Notes: generated from the sequence alone by a model not told the origin. DNA of 32,000 bases from Candidatus Nanoclepta minutus (GCA_003568775.1 MWMI01000003.1:60001-92000), one strand, 5' to 3'; shown: positions 4,226 through 26,788, counted from the first letter of the stretch. A program made the numbers and translations.

Positions 4226-4297
4226 GCCGCCGTAGCTCAGCGGTAGAGCGGCGGACTTGTAATCCGCAGGTCGCGGGTTCAAATCCCGCCGGCGGCT
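4226..4297 (+). tRNA. tRNA-Thr (anticodon UGU), intronless, no encoded CCA
   Basis: Manual cloverleaf: acceptor GCCGCCG/CGGCGGC, D stem GCTC/GAGC, anticodon stem GCGGA/TCCGC, loop CTTGTAA, T stem GCGGG/CCCGC, T loop TTCAAAT, discriminator U. Confidence 0.95.
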
Positions 4298-4395: not shown

Positions 4396-4881
4396 TCCCG
4401 CTCACCCGCGATCTTTAATATTTTTACCGTTAATCATAATTTAAAATATGGAAAAGGCTTGGGTTTTTATTGCTATTGGTTTACTATTAGGAGAGGGACA
4501 TTTTGGTAAAAAGGAATATAGAAATCAGGGGAGGATTGTATTTTCAAATACGAATCCTGTATATGTAAGGCTTGTCTATAAATTATTTACAGAGTTTTTT
4601 AACGTTCCCAAAAACAAAATTAAAGTATATATCTATTATAACTTAAATTACTATAAATTAGTAGAAGAAATACGAATGTTTTGGTCTAAATCTCTAAAGA
4701 TACCTGATGAATATATCAGAATTTATACATATAAGAGAGATATAAAAAGAATTACTAGGCAATCAGAGAGGTGGGGGATATGTCAACTAAGAATAGACGA
4801 TGTGAACATTAAGGATAGGATAGAAAACTTTTTAAGCTCTCTTTTTCAAAAATATTATATAGAGGGGTGAGCGGGGCAGAG
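4396..4881 (+). mobile_element. Archaeal BHB-type tRNA intron (486 nt) carrying a LAGLIDADG-like ORF; putative mobile (homing) intron
   Basis: Central 4-bp helix 4390-4393 (CUGU) pairs with 4876-4879 (GCAG). The 3-nt bulges are 4394-4396 (CG|U) and 4880-4882 (AG|A). An 11-bp outer helix pairs 4397-4407 (CCCGCUCACCC) with 4865-4875 (GGGUGAGCGGG). The intron interior has genome-like AT content. Confidence 0.85.
4448..4870 (+). CDS. Intron-encoded single-motif LAGLIDADG-type homing endonuclease-like protein (140 aa)
   Basis: The N-terminal 'FIAIGLLLGEGHF' (motif codons 4472-4498) fits LAGLIDADG, with the conserved Gly at positions 3 and 9 and an acidic Glu at position 8. The downstream 'GRIVFSNTNPVYVRLVYKLFTEFF' and 'ICQLRIDDVNIKDRIENFL' resemble the beta-alpha core of the family. 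The ORF lies entirely inside the intron, and its TGA stop (4868-4870) sits in the BHB outer helix. Confidence 0.7.
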   Translation: MEKAWVFIAIGLLLGEGHFGKKEYRNQGRIVFSNTNPVYVRLVYKLFTEFFNVPKNKIKVYIYYNLNYYKLVEEIRMFWSKSLKIPDEYIRIYTYKRDIKRITRQSERWGICQLRIDDVNIKDRIENFLSSLFQKYYIEG

Positions 4882-7506: not shown

Positions 7507-8513
7507 GTTAGTAAAGAAACTATACATATTAACGCCTGTAGGAGGGATAGGGTAATTACTACCTTTCTCTCTGTAGCGCATCCAAAAATCTTTTTATTAA
7601 TCTTTATCGCTAGGTGGGTCATACTATATATCTTCTCGTATGGTTCTTTTAAACAATTTTTTTCATCAGGTATACCGAAGTTTTCTTTATATATACCATC
7701 CTTAAGCCCCCTTAAGAATAGGATCAGTTCAATGAAATAAAGTGTATAGGTTATTACCCCAAACTTTTCCATGTTCCCTAAAATTATTAGACTTCCATAC
7801 AATGCCCCTATACCATAAGTAAAGGAGTTACCTGGAAAGACTCTTGCAGGGTATTTGTTAAAGATAAAGAAAGCTAGTATAGAGGAAACCGTTATCAAGG
7901 AAGTGTAAGATATATAATATAGGCCAGATAGATAAGATTTTATTGCTAGGGATGTAAAGAGTATTAGGCCCATTGAAGCCTCTAATCCGTTATATCCAGC
8001 GATCATGTTAAATGCGTTTGATGCTCCTATAATACCTATAGGGACTAATACTAGGGGATAGAGCATTCCAACATCTATAGGACCTATGAAGGGTATATTG
8101 ATTACTGAAACACCACTAGAGGTAACCATTAAAGGTAAGGCTAATGTAGAAGTTAGTAATACCCTTTTCCAATGTTTTATTCCTTTTTTCCATCCTAATA
8201 CATCATCTAGAATACCTATTATTAAAGATAAAGAAACAACTGTCTCTATTATAAATATTTGAAGTAAATTAAAGGTCGTTTTTATCAGATAAACCTTCAG
8301 TGCCACATAAAGAAGGATTGATATACAAACGCTTAGGAGTACGAAAAAACCGCCTATCTCTGTAACCTCAGGTTTTTCATATTTGTTTAAATCCCTCCCA
8401 ACAAGACCTAATTCTTTTCCTAAAACGATCCATCTTTTTACTAAGGAATAAGTTAATAAGAATGAGAATAAAAGGATAAAGATAGATAAAAAATATTCTA
8501 TCATACTTCCCAA
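7503..8513 (-). CDS. aglH: Dolichyl-phosphate HexNAc-1-phosphate transferase (GT4, MraY/WecA/Alg7 family; AglH-like)
   Basis: It is a polytopic membrane protein with 'ILDDVLGW' and 'NAFNMIAGYNGLEASMG' motifs typical of polyprenyl-phosphate N-acetylhexosamine-1-P transferases. It lies immediately downstream of aglB with a 13-nt overlap. Confidence 0.85.
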   Translation of the reverse strand: MGSMIEYFLSIFILLFSFLLTYSLVKRWIVLGKELGLVGRDLNKYEKPEVTEIGGFFVLLSVCISILLYVALKVYLIKTTFNLLQIFIIETVVSLSLIIGILDDVLGWKKGIKHWKRVLLTSTLALPLMVTSSGVSVINIPFIGPIDVGMLYPLVLVPIGIIGASNAFNMIAGYNGLEASMGLILFTSLAIKSYLSGLYYISYTSLITVSSILAFFIFNKYPARVFPGNSFTYGIGALYGSLIILGNMEKFGVITYTLYFIELILFLRGLKDGIYKENFGIPDEKNCLKEPYEKIYSMTHLAIKINKKIFGCATERKVVITLSLLQALICIVSLLT

Positions 8514-11500
8514 ATAGATTTATAATTCTTTAGACCATATATTTCAGAGCACTTATTTATCTCTTCCAGATTCGTCGCTAGATAGAGACAATACTTGTAT
8601 TCAGGTACTGTAAAGTTTTCCGGGTAGTATATCTTCCATACTTTAGATGGTTGAGCTTCTTGATATATTTCTAAAGGTATTTTGTATATTGGTGGAATTC
8701 CTGGGTATGTATAGAAGACTAATTCAAAGTACGGATAACTGTCCTCAAAGAAATAGAGCTTTACCCAGGTATAGTTCATGGATTTTTGGGAAATGAAGTA
8801 TGCGGTAGCTAGAGACGATATATTATCGGGGTTCGTTATACTTGGAGTTACATATAAGCATCCATAATAGTCTGGATTTGGAAAATCTAGTCTAGCCCCT
8901 TCTAAGTATAGGCATCCTAATGTTAAGTTATAGTACTTTCCGTTATAATATAATAAGGCAGTTAAGTTTCTTACAAGCCATGGGGATATCTTGCTATAGT
9001 TTATAGATTCCCTTAATTGTTTTAGTTCGACAATTGGTTCTAAAAACTTTATATCGACTCTTACTATTCTTCCACAATTATTTATTCCTAAATCAGGTAT
9101 ACATCTAGGTATTTTCACATTATTTATATATAGATCCTCATCTAATGGGAAATCTCCAAAATAAGATAAAGTATCGTTATTTGCAAATACATAGTAAACT
9201 TTATTTCCAATTACTGTCCTAACACCAAGTTTTACATTATATTCCTCAGGTAAAGCAGAAAAGAAATTGGATATCCAGCTTACTTTATCGTACATTAAAT
9301 CAGAACCTAACCTAGTAAACTGATAGGATTTTCCAATATCGGTTGGATCTATGTATAGATAGGAAGGCATTACGTAATCTATTTCATATATTTTTTTGAT
9401 TAACTGTATCTCTTTCTCACTTAAGCCAAACTCTTCTATAGACTCCTTGCTTCCATTGAACTTAAACAATAGGCTTATCCATCCATCTCCTAACCTCTCT
9501 TTTAAATTAATTATCTTATCTATTTCTTCTTTTGAAAAGTTCAAGTCTTTATACAAATAATCATAAAATACTTTGTTTTTTCCGAATAACTCTAATATCT
9601 TAAAGATATGATAGTTATATGAAGAGTGTACATATAATAATTCTAGAGATTCGTTAAAGGACGTTCCAGCTAATCCATACCTCCCCATTAAATGATTCCA
9701 ATACGGGTATGAATTATCTCCAGACAACCATACTGTTCTGTTACCTAATACCCTCATATAATATCCATAATCCCACCAAAAGTGTATGGCAGAGTTATTT
9801 TCTGTATTAAAGTTTATCCATAAGGCAGAATAAATTATATTATCCTCCGTTCCTCCAGTATATAGTGGGAAGAAGTAGTAAGTTATGTATCCGAATCTAT
9901 TGTAAAATCCATATAAGATAGTAAGCAATAATGAGAACTTTAGGTATGAGGTTAAATTGAGATCTTTATTCCTAAAGTAATATTGGATAATAAAGTAAAC
10001 GTAGAAGAACGCTGGAAAGATTAGTGGAAATATGAACAACCTTGTCCTCTGTAAAATATAAAATACTAGGTAAAATGCTGTAACTGAAGAAATTAAGAAG
10101 AAGATATGTGTTAATATTTCTGATATAGTGTCTTTCTTATATTTATCTAACAAACCTAGCCAGTTAAGAGATATTGGGAATAATAGAGATAAAGAGAATC
10201 CTGCAAAGAACGCTAATCTATATATATACTTTCCTATAATTAATAGAAGGATAGAAGTTATAAGAACGAAGAGTTCCTCATCCGAAATATCTTTATAGGA
10301 CAGAATAATCCATGGGATTATAACGAAAAATACCAGAGACCAGGATAGTATTGTAGCGCCTGTTAGGGATAAAAAGTTATCTAATAAGAAGAGAGATGAT
10401 AGGAACAATGCGGAAAAGGATAAGGCATATAGTAGTTTCCATTTCTCTTTTTTATCCCATAAGAGATAAATTAGGGCAATTGTGGAAAGTATAGCACCAG
10501 CTACCGTATAATTCCTTAAATATTCTAAACCAGAAAACTTTTGAAATTCTGCAACAGATGTAATCATTCTATCACTGTAAGGAGATATTATATTGTTTAT
10601 ATATTTTGAAATGTATGGGATAGATATGATTATTAGCAAGAAGATTAAGAACAATCTGTAGAATGTATTTTTCTCAACTATTTTAAATAATCTTAATCTT
10701 TCATATACCCTATCCGTTTTTTCGTATATCTTAAATTTGCTAAATAAATAATCCAGTAGGTATAGAGCTGGGATTACGAGTATTATAATGTTATGTACTT
10801 CAAATAGAGAGGAGATTAGGATGTCTTCATATTCTAATAAGGAGAAGTATGGAATAAACAAGGCATAATAAGAAATTTCTGGATTATTTCTACCCAATAC
10901 GAACCTCAATACTTCTACAACTCCAATTACTAAAGGTATTATTACCCATCCACCCCATCCTTTTCTAGCTAAGATCGTTGAGAATATTAACAGGGTATAA
11001 AAGTATTCCTTTGATGGTTTGAATAAAGGATATAATATTAGAAGAGCTGTGAAGAGGGAAAGTAGTGTAAATGTCTGTAAGTGATCGCTGTTAGGAAAGT
11101 ATTTTATAAAGTAGTATAGTAAAATTATTCCGGCTACAGTTATACCAATTAGGATGTATCTTTTGATCTTATTTTTTTCAGCATTATTCTTAATTCCTAA
11201 TATATAGAAGTAGAGGGAAAGAACGATGAATAGTATTGCGCCAAGCTCTGTATCGAATGCTATTATCCTACTACCTATTAGAACATTTATGGAATATATA
11301 ATGGAAGAGACGGTTGCTAGTTTCCTATCCTTAAATAGTTCCTTTGCTAATAGGAAAAAGACGACGGATGAAAGTCCAAAGAATAAGGGGACTGTAAAGT
11401 TGGCGGCTAGCCATGTAATTTGGTTTGCTAGTGGATATATCCCTAAAATTGATAGGAAGGAGAGGGATGGGATAGCTTTTAGTATCAATAAGGAAAAAAG

Positions 11501-11752
11501 TCCAAGATACGATACTAAATCCTTATCTGTAAGGTATGTTCCGATGGGATAGTATCTACTTGGATCATAATCCGGTATATAACCCTTTGTATATAGGTCC
11601 ATCATATATGAATAGAACAAATAGGGATCTGGACCAACTAGATTATAATCACCGAGATTGTTTAATAATAAGCCCTTTGAGCCGAAGGATACTGAAAATA
11701 TTAATAGGCAGAGTACAATATCCTTAAGTACGTCCTTATTCCTAAATACCAT
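8501..11752 (-). CDS. aglB: Archaeal oligosaccharyltransferase AglB (STT3 family), 1083 aa
   Basis: The N-terminal half is multi-TM and is followed by the diagnostic WWDYG motif ('IHFWWDYGYY', codons at 9764-9778 on the minus strand). A large soluble C-terminal domain follows. Confidence 0.9.
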   Translation of the reverse strand: MVFRNKDVLKDIVLCLLIFSVSFGSKGLLLNNLGDYNLVGPDPYLFYSYMMDLYTKGYIPDYDPSRYYPIGTYLTDKDLVSYLGLFSLLILKAIPSLSFLSILGIYPLANQITWLAANFTVPLFFGLSSVVFFLLAKELFKDRKLATVSSIIYSINVLIGSRIIAFDTELGAILFIVLSLYFYILGIKNNAEKNKIKRYILIGITVAGIILLYYFIKYFPNSDHLQTFTLLSLFTALLILYPLFKPSKEYFYTLLIFSTILARKGWGGWVIIPLVIGVVEVLRFVLGRNNPEISYYALFIPYFSLLEYEDILISSLFEVHNIIILVIPALYLLDYLFSKFKIYEKTDRVYERLRLFKIVEKNTFYRLFLIFLLIIISIPYISKYINNIISPYSDRMITSVAEFQKFSGLEYLRNYTVAGAILSTIALIYLLWDKKEKWKLLYALSFSALFLSSLFLLDNFLSLTGATILSWSLVFFVIIPWIILSYKDISDEELFVLITSILLLIIGKYIYRLAFFAGFSLSLLFPISLNWLGLLDKYKKDTISEILTHIFFLISSVTAFYLVFYILQRTRLFIFPLIFPAFFYVYFIIQYYFRNKDLNLTSYLKFSLLLTILYGFYNRFGYITYYFFPLYTGGTEDNIIYSALWINFNTENNSAIHFWWDYGYYMRVLGNRTVWLSGDNSYPYWNHLMGRYGLAGTSFNESLELLYVHSSYNYHIFKILELFGKNKVFYDYLYKDLNFSKEEIDKIINLKERLGDGWISLLFKFNGSKESIEEFGLSEKEIQLIKKIYEIDYVMPSYLYIDPTDIGKSYQFTRLGSDLMYDKVSWISNFFSALPEEYNVKLGVRTVIGNKVYYVFANNDTLSYFGDFPLDEDLYINNVKIPRCIPDLGINNCGRIVRVDIKFLEPIVELKQLRESINYSKISPWLVRNLTALLYYNGKYYNLTLGCLYLEGARLDFPNPDYYGCLYVTPSITNPDNISSLATAYFISQKSMNYTWVKLYFFEDSYPYFELVFYTYPGIPPIYKIPLEIYQEAQPSKVWKIYYPENFTVPEYKYCLYLATNLEEINKCSEIYGLKNYKSIWEV

Positions 11753-12097: not shown

Positions 12098-12268
12098 ATG
12101 GAGGAGAGGATATGTTCTTTCTGTGGTAATAAATTGGAACCTGGAACTGGTCTTATTTATGTTCTAAACGATGGTAGGGTATTATATTTCTGTTCTAGAA
12201 AATGTTATAGAAATTGGGAGATGGGAAGAAATCCGAAAAAATATAAGTGGGCATCAGTAAATAGATGA
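12098..12268 (+). CDS. rpl24e: Ribosomal protein eL24 (L24e), 56 aa; absent from the supplied ORF track
   Basis: Manual translation gives [56 protein letters not shown]. It has the C-x2-C...C-x3-C zinc ribbon and the NP(R/K)K..W motif of L24e. It lies 1 nt after rps28e, and its stop overlaps the next ATG (ATGA). Confidence 0.9.
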
Positions 12269-12864
12269 GAAGGCTGATAAAGTTACTTATAATCATATTT
12301 ATTTTTTTCGTTTTAGTCAGCTATTTATACGTAAGCTTATTTGAAACATCTCTGGTTCTTAGGATTCCTTCTCCGAATGGAAGGTTGTATGAAGTGAGTT
12401 TTAATAATTTGGATATAATTAGGATGACATTTAATGGTGTTTTAAAGAAATTAGATATTGAAAATGGTTTAAACAAATCAGAAAGAGTTTCTATATATGT
12501 TAAGGAGATGAACGATATAATAGTTAAATATAAAGATTACTATGACTTCTATTATCTGGAATTTCAAAAGCTCTATCCGGAGAGGTATTTTATACTATGT
12601 ATATCCGATTCCTGTGATTATCTCTTCTTTTCAACCTCTGGTTTGTTGAAGGTTAATGGAAGCGAGGTCAATATAAAGGATCCCTTAATTTTATGGATAG
12701 ACGAAGAATATCTGAGGGGGTTCTTTAGATGTATGGAGGGGGGGTGCGATCTACTATATTATCTGAAGGAAGGTATAATTAAAGGAAATTTCAAGGTAAA
12801 AAACGCTAAAAAAGTAGTAGAGAGGATATTAGAAAAGTATAAGTTTACTCCTCCGATGGGTTGA
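12265..12864 (+). CDS. Hypothetical N-terminally membrane-anchored protein
   Basis: The ORF has one N-terminal hydrophobic helix ([23 protein letters not shown]). No recognisable catalytic motif was seen. It is translationally coupled to rpl24e. Confidence 0.45.
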
Positions 12865-17325: not shown

Positions 17326-17666
17326 TTTAAATTTTTATAATACTATCCGAGGTTATTAAGGTAAGAAAAAGAATGAAAGTTACTATTTAAGATGGAAGAA
17401 ATATATGATATATTAAAAAAGTTTGGATATGAAAAGGAATTAGAAGAATATTCTAAAATTAAAAATACATTTATATGGCAAATATCTGTTAAACCTGAGG
17501 AAATTGTGGGGATTCAGAAAAACATTAGATAGCCTTTCATACATGGAATGGGTAGCTAAGGAAAACGAAAAATTGTTGAACTCTATATATAGCAAAATTA
17601 CGAAACGTTCAAATGAAGAATATTAGCTAAAGAAAACTTAGTAAAAATATAATCTTCTATATTAAT

Positions 17667-17960
17667 ATAGAGCTAAACAAATATCGAAAAGAAGCTCAAA
17701 AGGCTGCAAGATATCTAAAGAAATTAAACGGCTATTATTATCTGGCTTTGGCATTAGCTGGAGAAGTAGAAGAGTTATTCAATCTTATAAAGAAAATTGC
17801 TAGGGATGATATGTAGTCTGATAGAGGGAAAATATTGAGCGAATTAGGAGATATATCGTGGTATACATCAGAATTGACAAAGCAATTCAGTTTTACTTTA
17901 GAAGAAGTAATAAGATATAATTTAGAAAAGTTAAGAAAAATATATTTAGAAAAAATTTAA
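17667..17960 (+). pseudogene. MazG-like all-alpha NTP pyrophosphohydrolase, disrupted (no ATG start; in-frame TAG at 17814-17816)
   Basis: The frame reads (I)ELNKYRKEAQKAARYLKKLNGYYYLALALAGEVEELFNLIKKIARDDM*SDRGKILSELGDISWYTSELTKQFSFTLEEVIRYNLEKLRKIY. This matches the MazG pattern (L.L.gE.gE....KK..RD / ELGD..WY / N..KL..R). The expected start codon position reads ATA, and an upstream in-frame TAA lies at 17628. Confidence 0.6.
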
Positions 17961-19297
17961 GGATATAGCCATCCTTCCCTTAACCTTGGGAACGGTAACG
18001 TATCTCTAACATGTTCTAACTTACATACCCACATAGTAAACCTTTCTAATCCTAGACCCCATCCAGAATGGGGTACTGAACCATATTTTCTTAAATCTAA
18101 ATACCATTCATATGCGTTTATTTCTTCGTCCCCTATCTTTACCTTTAATTTATCCAATCCCCATTCCTTTATCTTACTCTCCAATACCTCATACCTCCAT
18201 TCCCTCTCGGATCCTCCTATTATTTCTCCATACCCTTCGGGCGCTAATAGATCAAAGTTCTTAACGGTTCCATCACCTGCCTCATACATATAGAAGGCCT
18301 TTACCTTTCTTGGATAGTTGGTTAGGAATATTGGCACATCGAATTCCATTGCTAATTCCCTCTCTTCATCAGCACCCAAATCATCTCCATACTTTATGTT
18401 TAATCCCTTCTTCTGTAAGATCTTTATTCCATCTTCATATTTTACTACCTTCCATGGTTTTTCAACAAAGCCTTTTAATTCTTCTATCTTTCTTCCAGTA
18501 TTCTTTTCTAGTATTTCAAAATCACTTTTTCTTTCCTCAATAGTCTTTTCTATAGAATACTTCAAGGCTTCCTCAGTTACCTTTATTAAATCTTCTAGTC
18601 TCATCCATGCAGCTTCTATTTCAAAATGCCAATACTCATGTAAATGCCTTCTAGTCCTTGATTTTTCTGCTCTAAATGATGGGGTTAATGAAAATACCTT
18701 TTCCAAAGAATATATCAGTGCTTCTAGGTATAGCTGTGCGGATTGTGATAGGTATGCCTTATCCCCAAAGTAGTTTACCTCAAATAGTGTTGTAGTTTCC
18801 TCACAGGCGTTTCCAACCAGTATGGGGGGATGTACTTCATACCATCCATCTTTTATGAACCATTCCCTTAAGTTCTTTAGTAAAGAATGCTTTATCTTTA
18901 ATACAGAAGTAAACCATCTAGTCCTTACCCATAAGTATCTATACCTTTGTATGGTCTCTAGAGATTCTCCTCCCTTCAATGGGAAAGGTTGTCCGTAATC
19001 TACTACTTCCAAATCCGTTACTTCAATTTCATATCCACTTGGTGCTCTCTCATCTTTCCTCAGTATCCCCTTTATCTTTAAGGAACCTTCTATCTGCATC
19101 CTTACTGCGTCATTCCAAACCCTTTCGCTAACCTTATCTTTTCTAATGACAGCCTGTATAATTCCTGTGGAGTCCCTAATAACAAAGAATACCTTATCTT
19201 TCATATCCCTCATCCTATAAATCCATCCTAAGATTTCTACTTCCTTCCCTACAAATTCTTCTTTTAAAAAATCGGCTATATAAGAAACTTTCATCAT
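17957..19297 (-). CDS. asnS: Asparaginyl-tRNA synthetase (class IIb)
   Basis: 'SLTPSFRAEKSRTRRHLHEYWHFEIEAAWM', 'LAPEGYGEIIGGSERE' and the C-terminal 'YGSVPHSGWGLGLERF...FPR...LYP' match archaeal AsnRS (Pyrococcus-like) better than AspRS. An N-terminal OB anticodon-binding domain is present. Confidence 0.85.
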   Translation of the reverse strand: MMKVSYIADFLKEEFVGKEVEILGWIYRMRDMKDKVFFVIRDSTGIIQAVIRKDKVSERVWNDAVRMQIEGSLKIKGILRKDERAPSGYEIEVTDLEVVDYGQPFPLKGGESLETIQRYRYLWVRTRWFTSVLKIKHSLLKNLREWFIKDGWYEVHPPILVGNACEETTTLFEVNYFGDKAYLSQSAQLYLEALIYSLEKVFSLTPSFRAEKSRTRRHLHEYWHFEIEAAWMRLEDLIKVTEEALKYSIEKTIEERKSDFEILEKNTGRKIEELKGFVEKPWKVVKYEDGIKILQKKGLNIKYGDDLGADEERELAMEFDVPIFLTNYPRKVKAFYMYEAGDGTVKNFDLLAPEGYGEIIGGSEREWRYEVLESKIKEWGLDKLKVKIGDEEINAYEWYLDLRKYGSVPHSGWGLGLERFTMWVCKLEHVRDTLPFPRLREGWLYP

Positions 19298-19386
19298 GAA
19301 TCTAGGAGTTCCGACAAGTTATCATAAAATTATATAATTTAAAATAATTTTAAAATCTTTTATTAATTCTGAAGATTAAAGAATTA

Positions 19387-21153
19387 ATGGCAATAAGGTC
19401 TCCGATTGTGGTTGTATTGGGCCATGTTGATTCTGGAAAAACATCATTATTAGATTCAATTAGACAAACATCCTTAACGGAAAAGGAAGCTGGTGGGATC
19501 ACACAACATATTGGTGCTACCGAAGTTCCCATAGAGGTTGTGGAGAAGGTATCTAAACCTCTGATGGGTCTATTCAACTTTAGACTTAATATACCGTCAA
19601 TCCTCTTTATAGATACACCAGGTCATGAGGCTTTTAGTAATCTAAGGAAGAGGGGAGGATCCATTGCGGATTTTGCTATAATAGTTGTGGATGTAATTGA
19701 AGGTATTCAAAAACAAACGATAGAATCAATTGAGATATGTAAACAGTTTAAAGTACCTTTTTTAATTGCCTTAAACAAGATAGACAGGATAGATGGATGG
19801 AAGCCTCAAAACACATATGTATTTTTGGATTCCATTAAGAAACAGGGTCAAAGGACTGCTGAGGAATTAGAAAAGAGGTTATACGATGTTGTATATAAGT
19901 TATATGAGTTGGGTTTTGAATCTGAAAGGTTTGATAGGGTTAAAGACTTTAGGAGAGAGGTTGCGATAATACCTGTCTCTGCAAAGACAAAGGAAGGTTT
20001 AGCAGAACTATTACTAATAATATCTGGTTTAGTTCAGAGGTTTTTGGAAGAGAGATTAAAGATTGATGTAGAGGGTCCTGGGAAGGGTGTTATATTAGAG
20101 AGGAAGGAGGTTAAGGGGTTGGGTGATGTGATAGATGTAATTTTATATGATGGGAAGATAAAGAAAGGTGATAGAATAGCTTTTCTAACAAGAGAAGGTG
20201 TAAAGATAACTAATGTAAAGGCAATATATAAACCAGAAGCATTGAAGGATATTAGGTTTAAGACTAAGTTTTACGAAGTTGAAGAGGCTACTGCAGCATG
20301 TGGTGTTAGGATTTCTGGGGAAGGATTGGAAGAAGCAATACCAGGTTCGCATATATATGTGATTACCTCTGAAGAAGAGTTGAGTAAAATAAAGAGTGAG
20401 ATTGAAAGGGAAGTTTCGGAGATAATATTTAGTACTGATAGAATAGGTGTTGTGGCAAAGGCAGATACCTTGGGAACCTTAGAAGTTTTGATAAAAATAT
20501 TAAAGGAAAATAACATTCCTGTTGCTAGATCTGATATAGGAGATATAACAAAGGAAGATATAATGTTTGCATATTCAGTTAAAGAGAAGAAGCCTGAGTA
20601 TGGAATAATAATTGGGTTTAATGTAAAGGTTGATAAGAATGCTGAAGATTTCTTAAAGAGTTATAATATAAGGGTTATTTTGGGAAACGTTGTCTATAGA
20701 ATGATTGAGGATATTCAGAACTATGTAAATGAGTTAACAAAGAAGAAGTTACCTAGTGATCTACCATCCGTTGCAAAGATAAGGATTTTGCCAGGTAATG
20801 TATTTAGGAGGAGTAGTCCGGCAATCGTTGGTGTTGAGGTTTTAGCAGGTGAGTTGAGAAAAGATGTTTATTTGATGAGGGAAGATGGAAAGGTTATTGG
20901 AAAGGTTTTATCAATACAGTATGAAAAGAAGAACCTAGATAATGCAAGGAAAGGTGATAAAGTTGCTGTAAGCATTGATGATGCAGTAGTTGGAAGGAAT
21001 GTAGAAGAAGGAAATATTTTATACACGTTTTTATTAGAGGATCAGTTTAGGAAATACAAGGAATATAAGGATATGTTGAGTGAGGAGCAGAAGGAAGTTT
21101 TGAGGGAAATAGCTAATATAATGAGAAAGACTAATCCTGCCTGGGGTTTGTAA
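19387..21153 (+). CDS. infB: Translation initiation factor aIF5B (IF-2 homologue)
   Basis: The GTPase motifs are 'VVVLGHVDSGKTSLLD', 'GGITQHIGA', 'DTPGHEAF' and 'ALNKIDR'. Length and domain order are typical of aIF5B, with no intein. Confidence 0.92.
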   Translation: MAIRSPIVVVLGHVDSGKTSLLDSIRQTSLTEKEAGGITQHIGATEVPIEVVEKVSKPLMGLFNFRLNIPSILFIDTPGHEAFSNLRKRGGSIADFAIIVVDVIEGIQKQTIESIEICKQFKVPFLIALNKIDRIDGWKPQNTYVFLDSIKKQGQRTAEELEKRLYDVVYKLYELGFESERFDRVKDFRREVAIIPVSAKTKEGLAELLLIISGLVQRFLEERLKIDVEGPGKGVILERKEVKGLGDVIDVILYDGKIKKGDRIAFLTREGVKITNVKAIYKPEALKDIRFKTKFYEVEEATAACGVRISGEGLEEAIPGSHIYVITSEEELSKIKSEIEREVSEIIFSTDRIGVVAKADTLGTLEVLIKILKENNIPVARSDIGDITKEDIMFAYSVKEKKPEYGIIIGFNVKVDKNAEDFLKSYNIRVILGNVVYRMIEDIQNYVNELTKKKLPSDLPSVAKIRILPGNVFRRSSPAIVGVEVLAGELRKDVYLMREDGKVIGKVLSIQYEKKNLDNARKGDKVAVSIDDAVVGRNVEEGNILYTFLLEDQFRKYKEYKDMLSEEQKEVLREIANIMRKTNPAWGL

Positions 21154-21164
21154 GTTCGTCATTA

Positions 21165-21172
21165 TTTATAAA
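21165..21172 (+). promoter_or_regulatory. TATA-box-like element (tttataaa) centred ~27 nt upstream of the ATG at 21195, flanked by GTTCG/CGAAC repeats
   Basis: The spacing fits a leaderless archaeal transcript. The inverted half-site GTTCG is at 21154-21158, and tandem CGAACTA copies are at 21179-21185 and 21187-21193. Confidence 0.4.
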
Positions 21173-21194
21173 TATTACCGAACTAACGAACTAT

Positions 21195-21755
21195 ATGAAG
21201 AAGGAAAGGATATTGAGAGTATTAGGAATGAAAAGGGTTGTTAGTTTTGGAGATCTAGTTAGAGAGAGTAATGTATCAAAATCCTATTTATCAGAATTTT
21301 TGAAGGTTTTAAGAGAAAGAGGGTTGATATTAATGGGAGAAAGCATTAAAGTTACAGATTTAATAGAATTCTTAAGGTTTTGGGGTGAGAAAAAAAGGAA
21401 AATATTGAAGAGAATTAATTCCTTTTTAACAGATACCCTATTTATTAACGATTTCTTATCTGTTTTATCTAATAAGGATTATGTTTTGTCAGGACAGTTT
21501 GTAGAAAATTTAATTACAAAACAGAGCTCAGGTATATCTCTATGGGTATATGTTTTTGACGAAAATACTTATTTGGAACTAATGAGGGGTTTTAGTAAGA
21601 AGAGGAGTGGAAGGATAAAGGTAATGTTCTATGATGATCATATAAAGTATGGTAGTAGCTTTCTTCAAGGATATAGGATAGTAGCTTTAGAGCAATTAGC
21701 AGCAGATTTAATTGCAGAGGGCATATTTACCGATATAAAGGTATTGTTAAAATGA
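21195..21755 (+). CDS. Winged-HTH protein, AbiEi-like (putative type IV antitoxin/transcriptional regulator)
   Basis: The N-terminal 'VVSFGDLVRESNVSKSYLSEFLKVLRERGLI' is wHTH-like. The ~110-aa C-terminal domain and an ATGA-coupled downstream nucleotidyltransferase reproduce the AbiEi/AbiEii arrangement. Confidence 0.5.
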   Translation: MKKERILRVLGMKRVVSFGDLVRESNVSKSYLSEFLKVLRERGLILMGESIKVTDLIEFLRFWGEKKRKILKRINSFLTDTLFINDFLSVLSNKDYVLSGQFVENLITKQSSGISLWVYVFDENTYLELMRGFSKKRSGRIKVMFYDDHIKYGSSFLQGYRIVALEQLAADLIAEGIFTDIKVLLK

Positions 21756-22417
21756 TTGAGGATTTCTATAAATATTCCAAAATCTCTTGGGAGTATTTGG
21801 ATGAGATATGGAGAAAAATAAGGGGAGAAAAGATGTTAATAGGAGGATGGGCAGTTCATTTATTGGTAAATGATGGATTAAAGATAAATAAAAGAAAGGA
21901 ATATATTGGATCTAAAGATATAGATTTGTTTGTAGAAGATTTAGAAAGAGTTTTTGATATTTTAGTTAGTTTAGGGTTTGAAAAAGAAGATAATAGGTTT
22001 TTTAAAGAAGAAAGAGATTTTAAAATTTTTGTAGATGTTTTTAGCCCAGGAAATACTCCGGATCCTCTAATGGAATACGCCTTTATAAACAATTATAAGT
22101 TAAGGATAAATAATTTTATAGTACCCTACCCAGAATTCTTAATAGTGTCGAAGATAAATACAATATTAGTTAGGGGTATGAAAGAGAAAAGAATAAAGGA
22201 TATTTTAGATTTACTTATGCTAATTTCCTTTTCAAAATACGATATTGATTTGATAAAGGATTTAATTAGAAAACATAACGTTTATATTTCTTCCTTTGTC
22301 ATAAAGGAAATAGAAGAGAACTCATATGTTTTAAAATACTTTAATTTTGATGATAAAGAAATAGAAAGCTTAATTAAAATTTTAGAAAGAGTTCTATTAT
22401 ATGGAAGAAACCCTTAA
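21752..22417 (+). CDS. Pol-beta-superfamily nucleotidyltransferase, AbiEii/DUF1814-like (putative toxin)
   Basis: 'MLIGGWAVHLLV...IGSKDIDLFV' fits the G-G/S...D-x-D NTase signature, with a third acidic 'FVDVF'. A helical C-terminal half follows. Confidence 0.55.
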   Translation: MIEDFYKYSKISWEYLDEIWRKIRGEKMLIGGWAVHLLVNDGLKINKRKEYIGSKDIDLFVEDLERVFDILVSLGFEKEDNRFFKEERDFKIFVDVFSPGNTPDPLMEYAFINNYKLRINNFIVPYPEFLIVSKINTILVRGMKEKRIKDILDLLMLISFSKYDIDLIKDLIRKHNVYISSFVIKEIEENSYVLKYFNFDDKEIESLIKILERVLLYGRNP

Positions 22418-23123
22418 ACTAATTAAAGAAACTATTCTCAACGTTGCAAAGGAATATAATGTTGAAATAGATAAAATAATCCTGTTTGGATCTAGGGCAA
22501 GAGGAGATTTTAGGGAAGATTCCGATTGGGATATATTAATTGTAACTAAGGAGAAAATGGATAGAGAAAAGGAATCAGATTTTAGATTGAAAATTGTTTT
22601 AGAACTTCATAATTTTTTAAATCAAGATATAGAGATAATAATTGTAGATAAAAGGACTTTTGAGGAATATAAAACTCCAGCTTATGTATATTATTATGCG
22701 GAAAAAGAAGGAAAACTTTTATGGTATAGTAGGGTTTATGAGGACGTTAAAAATCTTTTAGAAATGGCTATGGAAAATTTAAAAGTTGTAGATTATCTTA
22801 AATCTAAAGAGTTTTATTATCATATATGTCTTCATTGCTCATGGGCTGTTAGAGATTTATTAAAGGCTTTTTTAATATTTAATCAATTAAACTTTTCAAA
22901 ACCAAATGATATAGTTGAACTAGTAAAGCTATGTATGGAATTTGATAGGGATTTTAGGGAAGAATTCCAAAATTATATGGATGTTTTTGAAAAGTTGAAA
23001 GGGTATGATATTTTATTTAAAAGATCTGAACTCTTTGATGTAAGTAAAGAAGAAGCTCAGAGGATAATTGAAATTACTGAAAGAGTTAAAGAATTTATAT
23101 TAAATAAAATTAAGCTAGAATAA
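22401..23123 (+). CDS. Fused minimal nucleotidyltransferase (MNT) plus HEPN-like helical domain protein
   Basis: The N-terminal 'IILFGSRARGDFREDSDWDILIV' is the classic MNT G-S-x10-D-x-D motif. The C-terminal ~125 aa are helical with a HEPN-like 'AVRDLLKAFLIFN...NDIVELV' pattern. No Rx4-6H RNase motif is visible. Confidence 0.65.
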   Translation: MEETLKLIKETILNVAKEYNVEIDKIILFGSRARGDFREDSDWDILIVTKEKMDREKESDFRLKIVLELHNFLNQDIEIIIVDKRTFEEYKTPAYVYYYAEKEGKLLWYSRVYEDVKNLLEMAMENLKVVDYLKSKEFYYHICLHCSWAVRDLLKAFLIFNQLNFSKPNDIVELVKLCMEFDRDFREEFQNYMDVFEKLKGYDILFKRSELFDVSKEEAQRIIEITERVKEFILNKIKLE

Positions 23124-24769
23124 TGATAACTAGTTTAATAGAAGATCCTAATCTAATAGGTAATAAAGCAGCGAATCTATCCAAATTTAGGGGTCTGTTG
23201 AATATTCCCAAATCCCTTGTAATTACTACAGAAGCTTTTAGAGAATATATTAAAGATAAAAGTTTTTTAGATAAATTAGTTGAATATTTGGATGATAGTT
23301 TAAGTGATTTTAAAAGACCTTTAATATTTAGGAGTTCTTCAACAGTTGAAGATACTCCTGAAAAATCCTATGCAGGTGTATTTAAATCTGTTTTAAATGT
23401 TTATACAAAAGAAGATATGAAAGAGGCCATTAAGGAAATATATGAGGATTTCTTAAGGAAATCTAGAGAAGATATTGCGATATTAGTTCAGGAACAGTTT
23501 ACTAAGGGTAAGTTTGGTGTAATGTTTGGATTTGATGATAAAATAGTCTTAGAAGTTACTTTAAACGATCCGACAGGTATTACTAGTGGAAGGGCAAAAA
23601 TAAAGGATTTATACATTATAGATGGAGAAAATGCTTATGTTTATAATAATAAGAATTGGAAGATATTATTTGATTTAGAAATAGAAAAAATAAAAGAAGC
23701 TGATGGGAAGATAAAAAATGTAATTTATCCATATGATGTAGAATTCGTTGTTTATAAAGGGGATTTCTATTTATTACAGGTAAGACCTTTACATAAAAAA
23801 CCAGAATTTAGAATCGGTACTAGTAATTTGTATGGTGTCGGAGTTTCCAGTGGAAAGGTTATGGGAAGGGTTTCCTTTTCTGAAGATAATAAGGGAGTAG
23901 ATAAGATCCTAGTTATAGATGAGGTTCCTTTTGATGAGATAGAAAAAGTAAAGGAATTTGGGGGCATAATAATAGAGATAGGAAGTTTATTATCCCATAT
24001 AGCAATCCATATGAGAGAGTATGGAATACCAGCAATTGTTGGAGTTCCTATAAAATATTTCAGAGAAGGAGAGTTGATTGAAATGGATGGAAGCACTGGA
24101 GAAATAAAGTTTTTGGATAGAAGAGGTTTTGAGATATCTAGAATTGAAAGAGAAATAGAAATTTATGATCCTAAAATGTTAAGATTGCTTATAGTAGATA
24201 AGTATGCTTTTGTTTTATATCCAAAAGATGGGTATAGCATTCTGTTTTATAGAGATAGTAGAGGGTTAGACTATGTTTTGAGGATTTCTGAGGATCCTTT
24301 AGTAGACGGAGGAGTAGATAGTTGGCATACGTATGTGACTATTTTAGAGTTATCTCTATTGGATTCTGAAGTAAGGGGAGACTTTGAAAGGGTAATTAAA
24401 GCTATAGAAGAAGCCAATATGGAAAAAATAGAGAAATTGTATGGGGAATTAAAGAATAAGATTTCAAGATATTATAGAGAAGCTGAAATGAAAGAAGATT
24501 TATATTTAGTCGAAAAGACATATGCTTATATAAGGTTGGTAAGAAATGTATTACTATTCGAATATGGACAAAAGTTGATGAACAATCCAAAATTTATGGA
24601 ATTAGTAAAAAAGGATGAAGGAGAAAGATTACCCGAACTCTATAAAATATATGAGCTATTCGATAAGTTATATGATAGAATCGAAAAAGAACATGGACTA
24701 AAAAAGATGGATTATACATCTTACTTAGCTTTCCAAATAGATATTCTTAAGAAGGAGAGTAAGGTATAA
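23123..24769 (+). CDS. PEP-synthase/PPDK-like phosphotransferase: N-terminal ATP-grasp (PPDK_N) plus phosphohistidine swivel domain plus ~215-aa unrecognised C-terminal domain, with no PEP/pyruvate TIM barrel
   Basis: 'IGNKAANLSKF...IPKSLVITTEAF', 'FRSSSTVEDTPEKSYAGVFKSVLNV' and 'DVEFVVYKGDFYLLQVRP' match PPDK_N. 'GVGVSSGKVMGRV...ILVIDEVP...GGIIIEIGSLLSHIAIHMREYGIPAIVGV' matches the PEP-utilizer mobile domain, with the catalytic His codon at 23996-23998. Confidence 0.75.
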   Translation: MITSLIEDPNLIGNKAANLSKFRGLLNIPKSLVITTEAFREYIKDKSFLDKLVEYLDDSLSDFKRPLIFRSSSTVEDTPEKSYAGVFKSVLNVYTKEDMKEAIKEIYEDFLRKSREDIAILVQEQFTKGKFGVMFGFDDKIVLEVTLNDPTGITSGRAKIKDLYIIDGENAYVYNNKNWKILFDLEIEKIKEADGKIKNVIYPYDVEFVVYKGDFYLLQVRPLHKKPEFRIGTSNLYGVGVSSGKVMGRVSFSEDNKGVDKILVIDEVPFDEIEKVKEFGGIIIEIGSLLSHIAIHMREYGIPAIVGVPIKYFREGELIEMDGSTGEIKFLDRRGFEISRIEREIEIYDPKMLRLLIVDKYAFVLYPKDGYSILFYRDSRGLDYVLRISEDPLVDGGVDSWHTYVTILELSLLDSEVRGDFERVIKAIEEANMEKIEKLYGELKNKISRYYREAEMKEDLYLVEKTYAYIRLVRNVLLFEYGQKLMNNPKFMELVKKDEGERLPELYKIYELFDKLYDRIEKEHGLKKMDYTSYLAFQIDILKKESKV

Positions 24770-24799
24770 CTTTTTAAATGATATCCCTTTTTATCTATA

Positions 24800-25192
24800 A
24801 TGGCTAAGAAGGAAAGGGGAAGTATATATAAGATAGTCGTATCTGATCCAAAAACTGGAAAAGCTGTTCAAATAGATTATAAAGGAGACTTCTTCTTAGG
24901 TAAGAAAATAGGGGATAAGGTTCCGGGTGATGTTATAGGATTGAGCGGTTATGAATTGGAGATAAGGGGTGGATCTGGATTTGAGGGTGCACCAATGGTT
25001 GATTTTATAGAGGGACAAGTAAAGAAATACGTCTGGTGGAAGGATAAAGAGGGAAGGTATAAAAAGTTAGTTAGGGGTAATGCAGTTTCTCCAGAGGTAG
25101 TTCAGGTAAATACAATAATAGTAAAGTATGGAGATAGACCTTTTGAGGAAATATATAACGAGTTTAAGGCTAGGAAACAGCAGACTTCATAG
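24800..25192 (+). CDS. rps6e: Ribosomal protein eS6 (S6e)
   Basis: 'YKIVVSDPKTGKAVQIDYKGDFFLGKKIGDKVPGDVIGLSGYELEIRGGSGFEGAPM' matches the conserved archaeal S6e N-terminal domain. Confidence 0.9.
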   Translation: MAKKERGSIYKIVVSDPKTGKAVQIDYKGDFFLGKKIGDKVPGDVIGLSGYELEIRGGSGFEGAPMVDFIEGQVKKYVWWKDKEGRYKKLVRGNAVSPEVVQVNTIIVKYGDRPFEEIYNEFKARKQQTS

Positions 25193-26225
25193 TCATATAT
25201 CTTTCTCTTAGTTTTATTATTTGATCTATTTTTGATCTCGATCTATTATATAAGTTTTCTAATTTTTCTTTAGTAATTCCATTAGATATATAGAAGGAAT
25301 CTAAACCTTCTTCTCTTCTCTTTGTTATCTCTGCCGTAAGGGCTAAATATGTAAATATTTGCGGTATTTTTATTTCTTTTTTAGTTGGATCTCTTAATAA
25401 TTGTGAATAAAATATGTTTTGGAATATTGTTATTAATTCAGGAGCAGGTACTATGATTGGGAAACTTGGATAACCTTTTCTAGTTTCTAATAAGTTCATG
25501 GTTAATAATGCTTGATATCCTTGTCTTCCTATAATGTTCGGATAATAATACTTTCCCTTATACTTTATTTTCCTTAATCCATGATATGTATCGAATTCTC
25601 CAGATCCATTGACCTCAAAATCTCCTTGGTTTTGATATCCTTTAAGGATAACTCTATCATATCCTATTCTCTTTGGGAACGAGGGAATCTTTATTTCAAA
25701 TTCGTTTATATATTCCCCATTTTTCATTGGAGGTTCTTTTTGAACTGGTTTGTCTTTATTAATTACTAAATAGAGATATGCTTCTGGTATGTCTATTAAA
25801 GGTATTTCATAGGCTTTGCTATCAGAAGAAATTAGAATAATCGAGTATGGATAATTTATTCTACCGTTTGGATTGTTTAATCTCTTTAAGATATTGTCTA
25901 ACGAATTTGTAAAACCTTCAAAAGTTGGTAGGTTTTGTGATGGTACAATTCTTCTCTTCGCTCTAGAGATCAATATGATTGGATTATAATAATACTTTCT
26001 GTTTTCTTTCTTTCCTCCGCATATCGTTTCATGTATTTCCGTAGGTACTCTTTCCCTTACTTTTTCTTTAAAATCTTCTTCTATTCTTTCTACTAATTCG
26101 TAATGTATATTACCATTTGGTTTTTCTAGAGCAGGTAAAAGGTATTTTATTCTTTTATTTATGGTTTCTTCGATTATTTCATCGAGGAGGGGTTGGGCTT
26201 GCTGAAGTGCTTCTATGTATCTCAT
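25170..26225 (-). CDS. Hypothetical protein (351 aa), no recognisable motif
   Basis: This is a long uninterrupted ORF with balanced, non-low-complexity composition. An upstream AT-rich region is shared with the divergent pilin gene. Its 3' end overlaps rps6e by 23 nt (convergent). Confidence 0.5.
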   Translation of the reverse strand: MRYIEALQQAQPLLDEIIEETINKRIKYLLPALEKPNGNIHYELVERIEEDFKEKVRERVPTEIHETICGGKKENRKYYYNPIILISRAKRRIVPSQNLPTFEGFTNSLDNILKRLNNPNGRINYPYSIILISSDSKAYEIPLIDIPEAYLYLVINKDKPVQKEPPMKNGEYINEFEIKIPSFPKRIGYDRVILKGYQNQGDFEVNGSGEFDTYHGLRKIKYKGKYYYPNIIGRQGYQALLTMNLLETRKGYPSFPIIVPAPELITIFQNIFYSQLLRDPTKKEIKIPQIFTYLALTAEITKRREEGLDSFYISNGITKEKLENLYNRSRSKIDQIIKLRERYMTMKSAVS

Positions 26226-26305
26226 AAATTACTAATTGGTGGTTAAGGATATAAATATTGATATATTTTAAGGTTTATTAAGAGGGAAGGACTTAATTTA
26301 AAATT

Positions 26306-26788
26306 ATGAAGATTAGAGGTGTATCTCCTTTAATTGCAACTATAATACTTATTGCTTTGACCGTGTCAATTGGTGCTATAATAGTTGGATGGGGAAGGAG
26401 TTATATTCAAAAACAGATGATATGTGCTGGAATGAGTGCTTCTTTAAATTATAAAAACTATAGCTATAGTGGTGGGAATAATCCGAAAATTATTTCTTTC
26501 GATATTTTAAATAGCGGGGAATCGGTAATAAACTTACGAAATGCGTATATTAAAATTACCTCTATTGATGAAACGTCTGATATATGTTCGTATGGTACGG
26601 GGGGGTGTAGTTTTGTTGAGACATTGGGAAGCAATAATATAGTGCCTAGTAATTTTACATCGATATCTCTAACGGTAACAAGTATATCTCCTATTTATAA
26701 CAAGCTTTCAGGTGCAACAGTGGAGTTATATGATAAAACATGTAATACACTATTAGCAAGTACTATACTTCCATATTCTATTTCTTAA
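26306..26788 (+). CDS. Archaeal type IV pilin-like protein (class III signal peptide, DUF361-type N-terminus)
   Basis: 'MKIRG|VSPLIATIILIALTVSIGAIIVG' matches the archaeal prepilin consensus (K/R-G followed by V/Q-S-P-L/V-I-A-T). The C-terminal region is small and beta-rich. Confidence 0.7.
   Translation: MKIRGVSPLIATIILIALTVSIGAIIVGWGRSYIQKQMICAGMSASLNYKNYSYSGGNNPKIISFDILNSGESVINLRNAYIKITSIDETSDICSYGTGGCSFVETLGSNNIVPSNFTSISLTVTSISPIYNKLSGATVELYDKTCNTLLASTILPYSIS

Follow-up and report, generated by a model that had tools for sequence, protein, structure and literature searches.

Do genes that overlap at every junction and all point in the same direction necessarily act together? This question is raised by a block of about 3.6 kb in the genome of Candidatus Nanoclepta minutus, a hot-spring nanoarchaeote (Nanoarchaeota). 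In the 32,000-nt stretch that we analysed (MWMI01000003.1:60001-92000, hereafter the window; G+C content about 30%), four co-oriented open reading frames (ORFs), named here ORF1 to ORF4, lie on the plus strand between infB and rps6e. They encode, in this order, a protein whose N-terminus carries a winged helix-turn-helix (wHTH), a putative nucleotidyltransferase (NTase) of the AbiEii/MenT type, an MNT-HEPN fusion and an enzyme of the PPDK superfamily. A preliminary description, made from the sequence alone, had joined the four genes into one composite module. The overlaps on which it leaned are borne out by the list of ORFs in the window: ORF1 and ORF2 share the 4 nt of an ATGA at 21752, ORF2 and ORF3 overlap by 17 nt (22401-22417), and ORF3 and ORF4 share 1 nt in a TAATG overlap at 23123. 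The gene set that it delimited (21154-24769) also stands, except for its first position, since 21154 directly follows the infB stop codon and ORF1 starts at 21195. The data presented below indicate that ORF1-ORF2, ORF3 and ORF4 are very probably three independent modules in a strain-variable islet, whose likeness to a single operon is due only to the extreme compactness of the genome.

The distribution of the genes in other genomes carries this conclusion. Among the loci examined, the four genes were found together nowhere outside this strain; the preliminary description had itself named a lack of co-occurrence outside this genome as refuting the composite module, and this lack is what the neighbourhood analysis found. 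Specifically, the neighbourhoods of ORF4 were analysed for four of the five non-self homologue clusters, those of Nanobdella (L001/L002) and of the loci L003, L004 and L005, and no relative of ORF1, ORF2 or ORF3 was detected by tblastn near any of these homologues. Next to them lie a GT2 glycosyltransferase and AAA_14/DUF4143 ATPases in Nanobdella, BpsA_C, radical SAM and Peptidase_C39-like genes in L003, an AAA_14 ATPase and spermidine-synthase fragments in L004, and two unannotated genes in L005. The upstream neighbour in L005 had been read by eye as a radical-SAM/SPASM gene, an assignment that was dropped when Pfam gave no confirmation. Fused relatives of ORF3 are solitary in three loci (L013-L015), amid small unknown genes, a resolvase, a TnpB-like gene and AAA_14 ATPases. 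Every ORF2 relative examined (L006-L011) has an ORF1-like neighbour, and this holds from close to remote homologues: identities are 90-91% for both proteins in L006/L007, 67% (ORF1) and 54% (ORF2) in L008, where the two genes are divergently transcribed, and 24-31% (ORF1 partners) and 26-28% (ORF2) in L009/L010 and L011. ORF4 accompanies none of these pairs and MNT/HEPN genes adjoin them in L006 only, while the distant pairs (L009-L011) adjoin MazE-PIN or metabolic genes. Scans of viral contigs with all three modules returned no real relatives.

Comparison of close strains at the infB-rps6e junction leads to the same picture, as three strains show three arrangements. The window carries the series ORF1-ORF2-ORF3-ORF4. 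The sister strain L006 is collinear with window positions 17659-22570 at 86% nucleotide identity, through AsnRS, infB, ORF1 and ORF2 and into ORF3 for 170 nt; past this breakpoint it carries two split pairs, with MNT proteins of 108 and 104 aa and HEPN proteins of 135 and 125 aa, and it rejoins the window at 24738, where the last 32 nt of ORF4 begin, shortly ahead of rps6e, the site being devoid of ORF4 itself. The third strain, L012 (JGI 3300005801 Ga0079640_1001915), is 98% identical to window positions 22614-26425 and possesses ORF4 (99% identical) and rps6e; its copy of ORF3 (L012 1-645) is truncated at the 5' end, encodes 175 aa starting with MRNIRL, and lacks the GS...DxD motif of the NTase.

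The strain breakpoints cluster at 22570-22614, within the MNT coding region. When the MNT-HEPN units of the window and of L006 (6214-7638) are compared, their first 120 nt (window 22401-22520) are 88-97% identical, even between the two L006 paralogues, their last ~60 nt (window ~23060-23123) are 68-82% identical, and their cores are 35-58% identical. This pattern suggests a cassette-like mosaic whose conserved ends may have undergone gene conversion or recombination.

The start/stop overlaps themselves are not informative about coupling in this genome, because 9 of the 18 same-strand junctions in the window overlap (6 of 15 outside the block) at a coding density of about 95%. Moreover, the 3' ends of convergent genes run into each other in three pairs, by 20-36 nt (12845-12864, 25170-25192 and 26753-26788), which shows how extreme the compaction is. 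A strict archaeal TATA pattern (TTTAWAWW), scored between -36 and -24 relative to the ATG, is present at 7 of 27 genes, compared with a background of 2%; it was not found upstream of ORF2. The TATA-like boxes that precede ORF1 and ORF4 (Table 1) are consistent with ORF1-ORF2 being one unit and with ORF4 having a promoter of its own.

The block can be read as an insertion into the ancestral infB-rps6e junction, as had been proposed before, because in 15 other aIF5B loci of archaea rps6e comes next after infB on the same strand, at a distance of -4 to +351 nt. In two further archaeal loci about 2 kb separate the two genes and hold the classical ndk-rps28e-rpl7ae cluster. The loci of the adjacency set come from metagenome contigs found with infB, at identities of at most 57%, with no close nanoarchaeal relative among them. 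Around the block we found no convincing direct or inverted repeats, no integrase and no classical mobile-element boundary, and an Rfam scan of the window returned two tRNAs and nothing else.

With regard to the ORF1-ORF2 module, ORF2 scored 20.2 bits against Pfam AbiEii (PF08843, DUF1814; cut-off 22.5), 20.0 bits, also sub-threshold, against NTP_transf_5, and E 4e-4 against the PADLOC AbiEii models. The Pfam AbiEii family is matched weakly by 16 of the 25 members of the ORF2 family, with a best E of 1.2e-5. In the alignment of these 25 sequences the motifs GGWAV, GSxDIDL, K134-x6-R141 and KRIKD150xxD153 are invariant, with G31-G32, D56-I-D58, K146-R147, K149-D150 and D153 among the invariant residues. 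The motifs described for AbiEii, namely I/II (hG[GS]x15DhD), III (K..R; KLxAaxxR) and the Asp of motif IV (Dy et al. 2014, PMC3985639), all have counterparts in ORF2, the spacer between motifs I and II being of 23 residues as compared to 15. In addition, a Foldseek search with the AlphaFold model of ORF2 (pLDDT 91.9, pTM 0.89) returned NTases as the closest solved folds (5uvd, MenT1 8an4, JHP933 4o8s and LnuA 4fo1), with TMq values of 0.4-0.54 for MenT1, JHP933 and LnuA, JHP933 giving 0.54. The assignment of ORF2 to the AbiEii type is supported by the weak matches throughout its family together with the conserved motifs and the fold.

The N-terminus of ORF1 gave weak matches to wHTH domains of the MarR/ArsR type and nothing else. 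When ORF1 is aligned with its counterparts from L006, L007, L008, L009 and L011, 26 columns are invariant, and its likeness to AbiEi would be one of analogy, consisting in the two-domain architecture alone. In the window and in L006, L007, L009, L010 and L011 the NTase gene is directly preceded by the regulator gene, the exception being the divergent arrangement of L008.

Upstream of ORF1 in the window, a palindrome with 7-nt arms (AGTTCGT/ACGAACT; P ~0.085 against background, and not significant by itself) surrounds the TATA-like box; the segment from the infB stop codon to the ORF1 ATG carries 2 substitutions relative to L006/L007 and is otherwise identical. Palindrome arms of 8 nt (P 0.028) surround a TATA box upstream of the ORF1 homologue in L011. 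In L008 (5397-6654; ERZ1669402 NODE_19), the homologues of ORF1 and ORF2 are transcribed divergently from a 52-nt spacer, in which a perfect 15-nt palindrome, TTACTAGTTTACTAA-N12-TTAGTAAACTAGTAA, is centred on the TATA box (P <=0.002). This palindrome is likely to be a shared operator, and the layout is unusual for a toxin-antitoxin (TA) pair.

The best reading of ORF1-ORF2, by analogy with characterised systems, is a remote AbiE/MenT-type TA or abortive-infection pair with a putative autorepressing wHTH antitoxin. As in the type IV TA system AbiE, a pol-beta NTase gene is overlapped by the gene for a wHTH and a C-terminal domain just upstream of it; a palindrome occurs at the putative promoter; and the pair recurs in unrelated genomic contexts. 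ORF2 further shares with the AbiE and MenT toxins the motif equivalents and a fold closest to MenT1, JHP933 and LnuA (MenAT/MenT, PMC10435456). The pair differs from AbiE in that ORF2 is shorter (221 aa), with the longer I-II spacer and a Pfam score below the cut-off, that ORF1 has no detectable COG5340/AbiEi similarity, and that the genes are divergent in L008; the toxicity of ORF2 is putative. DPANN archaea are reported to show an enrichment of AbiE and of candidate NTase/HEPN systems (PMC12988326), a known trend into which ORF1, ORF2 and ORF3 therefore fit.

ORF3 is a fused MNT-HEPN protein, as first described, since Pfam recognised both halves (Polbeta 6e-13, NTP_transf_2 3e-10, HEPN PF05168 1.1e-12). 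It also matched the PADLOC candidate PDC-S09 (9e-19), and it scored 44.2 bits against the MntA equivalog of NCBIfam (NF047752; cut-off 60). Nine full-length fused relatives, of 231-259 aa and 62-69% identity, indicate that fusions of this type form a genuine lineage. An origin of ORF3 by a recent frameshift that joined an L006-type pair was considered and rejected, as the HEPN half is 30-33% identical to the L006 HEPN proteins and the nine fused relatives exist. The fusion had been regarded as unusual in the preliminary description; it is, instead, of a known kind, as domesticated fusions such as kanamycin nucleotidyltransferase, in which the HEPN domain fused to MNT is typically inactive, have been described (PMC3710099), as well as an active HepT/MntA fusion, FhepTA, from Shewanella (PMC13000451).

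The NTase motif GSx10DxD (G30-S31...D42-x-D44) is conserved throughout the fused family, and the Rx4-6H RNase motif is absent from the HEPN half of ORF3 and of all nine fused relatives, which agrees with the published rule on inactive fused HEPN domains (PMC3710099). Compared with the split HEPN proteins of L006, ORF3 shows PND in place of KTH/RTH and GY in place of RY, Y202 being retained; in the fused family the Arg of the RY motif is replaced by G, E, K or N and Y202 is invariant. The weight of the missing motif is tempered by L006 HEPN1, which likewise lacks a strict Rx4-6H. Judged from these residues, the most likely role of ORF3 is that of an NTase that has been domesticated or modifies itself, and not that of an active RNase toxin. 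Its resemblance to type VII HepT/MntA and to FhepTA lies in the minimal N-terminal NTase and the C-terminal HEPN domain, held by a short linker in a single polypeptide, in the solitary genes in mobile-looking contexts, and in the alternation of split and fused forms between close strains. It differs from FhepTA by the absence of RφxxxH, which places it closer to the inactive or domesticated class, and by its score below the NCBIfam MntA cut-off.

A search of 5.8 billion proteins showed ORF4 to be 100% identical to BXU00_02330, a hypothetical protein of Candidatus Nanoclepta minutus, and ORF4 is the sole element of modest novelty in the block. Pfam detected PPDK_N (PF01326, 9.9e-21) in three stretches and PEP-utilizers (PF00391, 8.4e-14; residues 261-326), and no match to PEP-utilizers_C even at E<=1; no PADLOC model was matched. 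Three parts can be distinguished: an ATP-grasp domain (~1-228), which falls about 100 residues short of the Pfam model, a phospho-His swivel domain (~235-330), and an orphan C-terminal domain (~335-548). These data, together with the helical C-terminus, confirm the earlier view of a barrel-less ATP-grasp and swivel enzyme. In the family alignments R70-S71-S72, E76-D77, Q123-E124 and Q219/R221 of the ATP-grasp domain (RSS..ED, QE and LQxRP) are invariant, as is H292 in the LLSH motif of the swivel, and the C-terminal domain carries the motif DGGxDxW[HY]xY (D395-Y404). Sequence searches of the PDB and Foldseek searches returned phosphoenolpyruvate (PEP) synthases (PEPS), PPDK and rifampin phosphotransferase (RPH), covering the first two domains and not the C-terminal one; the best PDB sequence match was RPH (1e-14), and the swivel matched the phosphocarrier domains of PPDK and Enzyme I in Foldseek. 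Residues 400-548 are modelled by AlphaFold as a helical bundle that follows beta-hairpins (pLDDT ~85-94), with no alpha/beta barrel.

When 1.84 billion representatives were searched exhaustively with phmmer, residues 335-548 were found in three clusters only (P0005, P0008 and P0082), P0082 being a protein of 636 aa built of the same three parts, and a profile of this domain gave noise alone against the PDB and Pfam (designed helical bundles and haemagglutinin HA2). In a word-indexed search of the 5.8 billion proteins the full-length relatives of ORF4 numbered only eight, all nanoarchaeote-like, the one from Nanobdella aerobiophila being 54% identical; a search of genome contigs with an ORF4-alignment profile gave, among the matches listed, Nanobdella and one remote bacterial PPS-like gene. 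Homologues in Nanobdella and UniRef are annotated as 'phosphoenolpyruvate synthase' or 'Pyruvate, water dikinase'. For the proposal that the family is a new class of PPDK-superfamily dikinase, with a novel nanoarchaeote-specific substrate domain and mis-annotated as PEP synthase, we consider the case evenly balanced. ORF4 has in common with PEP synthase and PPDK the ATP-grasp domain, the central swivelling phospho-His domain with its conserved His, and the N-to-C order of the domains; in ORF4, however, the C-terminal PEP/pyruvate TIM barrel is replaced by the orphan, mostly helical domain of ~215 residues, the ATP-grasp domain is shortened, and the equivalog scores reach about a tenth of the cut-offs. 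RPH and PigC/RedH likewise combine the ATP-grasp and swivel-His machinery with a substrate domain that is not a TIM barrel. In RPH, however, this domain lies between the ATP-grasp domain and a C-terminal swivel, whereas the swivel of ORF4 is central and its additional domain, which has no sequence similarity to that of RPH, is C-terminal (NF041857 56.7, cut-off 999).

Some further features were observed around the ORF4 homologues. L003 contains a partial second paralogue of the family (8237-8628, residues 8-124), 3.5 kb downstream of the full-length one and cut by the contig end. Genes of the polyamine aminopropyltransferase type are convergent to ORF4 homologues in the regions 4775-7828 of L003 (BpsA_C, alongside the radical SAM and Peptidase_C39-like genes) and 3143-3954 of L004 (split Spermine_synth), a weak association. 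AAA_14/DUF4143 ATPase genes lie within a few kb of ORF4 homologues (L001 and L004) and of fused MNT-HEPN homologues (L013-L015); such genes are probably numerous and somewhat mobile in these genomes.

Other ways of grouping the four genes have to be weighed against three independent modules. The view that they form one translationally coupled, composite nucleotide- or RNA-modifying system, devoted to defence, TA or small-molecule inactivation, draws on the co-orientation and the three start/stop overlaps, on the presence of two NTases beside a phosphotransferase, and on the fact that ORF4, having no PADLOC model, would make the system an undescribed one. It is opposed by the failure of all four genes to co-occur outside this strain in the loci examined, by the sister strain, which has no ORF4 at the site, by L012, which has no ORF2-ORF3 junction, by overlaps that are the genomic norm, and by the TATA-like box before ORF4; we regard it as the least probable of all the readings, and close to negligible. 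A smaller grouping, in which ORF3 and ORF4 are a Nanoclepta-specific functional pair (for example, a dikinase that phosphorylates or regulates the MNT-HEPN protein or its product) and ORF1-ORF2 is separate, is slightly less improbable, although still very unlikely: the two genes overlap by 1 nt, are adjacent in the window and in L012, and are replaced jointly in L006, but the ORF3 relatives of L013-L015 are solitary, the ORF4 relatives of L001 and L003-L005 have no MNT/HEPN neighbour, and ORF4 is preceded by its own TATA-like box. Furthermore, in L012 ORF3 has lost the NTase motif while ORF4 is 99% identical, which argues against a functional dependence between the two. That ORF4 was recruited beside the fused gene in Nanoclepta and acts with it, for example by phosphorylating the conserved HEPN Tyr or a nucleotidylated product, seems more doubtful still; if true, it would add a phosphotransfer layer of a new kind to an NTase/HEPN conflict module.

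No more credible is the possibility that ORF4 is the PEP synthase (pyruvate, water dikinase) of the organism with a divergent C-terminal domain, for which we would allow only a very slim chance. The source annotations say so, the best NCBIfam, PDB and Foldseek matches of the two N-terminal domains are PEPS, PPDK and RPH, and the order of ATP-grasp, swivel and C-terminal domain is that of PEPS. Nevertheless, PEP-utilizers_C is missing even at E<=1, the C-terminal 215 residues are predicted to form a beta-hairpin region and a helical bundle rather than an alpha/beta barrel and match nothing in the PDB or Pfam, the ATP-grasp domain is the shortened one described above, and the scores against the NCBIfam equivalogs are far below their cut-offs (TIGR01418 61.8, cut-off 739.75; TIGR01828 34.5, cut-off 843). 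Pyruvate is an unlikely substrate of ORF4.

Several points weigh against the reading of three independent modules and against the assignments made within it. ORF3 and ORF4 remain adjacent in both Nanoclepta strains that have ORF4 at this site (the window and L012), and both are missing from L006. The 135 nt upstream of the ORF3 copy in L012 match nothing in the window and, lying at the contig edge, could be an assembly chimera. The sample outside the species is small and consists of 4 ORF4 loci, 3 ORF3 loci and 5 ORF2 loci, from tiny families and mostly on short contigs. Promoters and operators were called from matches to consensus patterns in DNA of 70% A+T, and a looser TATA-like sequence, TTAATTAAAA, is present at -31 from ORF3, the pattern having been added post hoc. 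With respect to the individual proteins, ORF2 falls below the trusted thresholds of both Pfam and PADLOC, and the AlphaFold model of ORF4 is, overall, of low confidence (pLDDT 66, pTM 0.39). Finally, the layout named in the preliminary description holds as an AbiE-like one; ORF1 itself matched no AbiEi/COG5340 model of Pfam, NCBIfam, PADLOC or PDB, also with a five-sequence profile.

With these points taken into account, we propose that the block is a strain-variable accessory islet in the ancestral infB-rps6e junction, holding three functionally independent modules, whose activities and regulation are predicted as follows. ORF1-ORF2 would be a bicistronic, probably autoregulated TA or abortive-infection pair of the AbiE/MenT type. 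By analogy with AbiEii and MenT, ORF2 would add nucleotides to cellular RNA, for example to tRNA 3' ends, and arrest growth, while ORF1 would repress the promoter via the palindrome around the TATA box and neutralise ORF2 via its conserved C-terminal domain. ORF3 would be a stand-alone fused MNT-HEPN protein, with an intact NTase site and a HEPN half that has lost the Arg and the His and kept Y202. ORF4 would be a dikinase of the nanoarchaeal lineage, in which ATP bound in the ATP-grasp domain phosphorylates H292 on the swivel, which would then pass the phosphate to a substrate, most likely other than pyruvate, held by the orphan C-terminal domain. The features of the islet and of its flanks are collected in Table 1.

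Table 1. Coordinates of the islet, its flanking genes and its putative promoter elements in the window.
Feature	Position	Strand	Basis or remark
infB (aIF5B)	19387..21153	+	Pfam families on the L006 homologue (90% identical); upstream flank
Putative ORF1-ORF2 promoter/operator	21146..21191	+	TATA-like box TTTATAAA at -30 from the ORF1 ATG, straddled by the inverted repeat AGTTCGT/ACGAACT
ORF1, N-terminal MarR/ArsR-type wHTH and conserved C-terminal domain, 186 aa	21195..21755	+	weak HTH matches; constant partner of ORF2 homologues
ORF2, pol-beta NTase of AbiEii/MenT type, putative toxin, 221 aa	21752..22417	+	motifs, weak AbiEii matches, fold
ORF3, single-polypeptide MNT-HEPN fusion, 240 aa	22401..23123	+	Pfam, nine fused relatives
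TATA-like box TTTATATT, possible independent ORF4 promoter	23093..23100	+	at -29 from the ORF4 ATG, inside the ORF3 3' end
ORF4, PPDK-superfamily enzyme, 548 aa	23123..24769	+	Pfam domains, invariant motifs
rps6e	24800..25192	+	downstream flank; L006 homology resumes at 24738

Elsewhere in the window, a MazG-like pseudogene (17667-17951, plus strand) fills most of an apparently gene-free gap of 631 nt; compared with the intact MazG of L006 (97 aa, 77% amino-acid identity) it has lost the ATG (IELN in place of MELN) and contains an in-frame stop. A free-standing ORF of 140 aa (4448-4870, plus strand), 150 nt downstream of tRNA-Thr (4226-4297), gave a sub-threshold match to the LAGLIDADG_2 homing-endonuclease family (E 6e-5, 23.4 bits, cut-off 25). 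No Pfam family was found at E<=1e-4 for the ORFs 8501-11752 (minus strand, 1083 aa), 25170-26225 (minus strand, 351 aa) and 12265-12864 (plus strand, 199 aa); the 1083-aa gene belongs to a cluster of glycosylation and surface genes, where it overlaps the gene for a GT4 glycosyltransferase.

In conclusion, the main value of these data is corrective: in the ultra-compact genomes of DPANN archaea, overlap and co-orientation are no proof of functional coupling, and a comparison at the level of strains can dissolve an apparent operon. The locus gives no pointer to a new defence mechanism, and what remains is an ordinary strain-variable TA islet and a PPDK-superfamily enzyme of narrow distribution with an orphan domain, the novelty resting with ORF4 and with the divergent AbiE-like pair and not with any four-gene system. 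In Nanoclepta, the infB-rps6e junction appears as a hotspot at which MNT/HEPN cassettes are swapped, fused and truncated. The label of 'PEP synthase' carried by the ORF4 family is misleading because the pyruvate/PEP domain is absent, and it could wrongly credit nanoarchaeotes with a gluconeogenic step. The substrate of ORF4, if found, could reveal a phosphorylation reaction specific to these symbionts.

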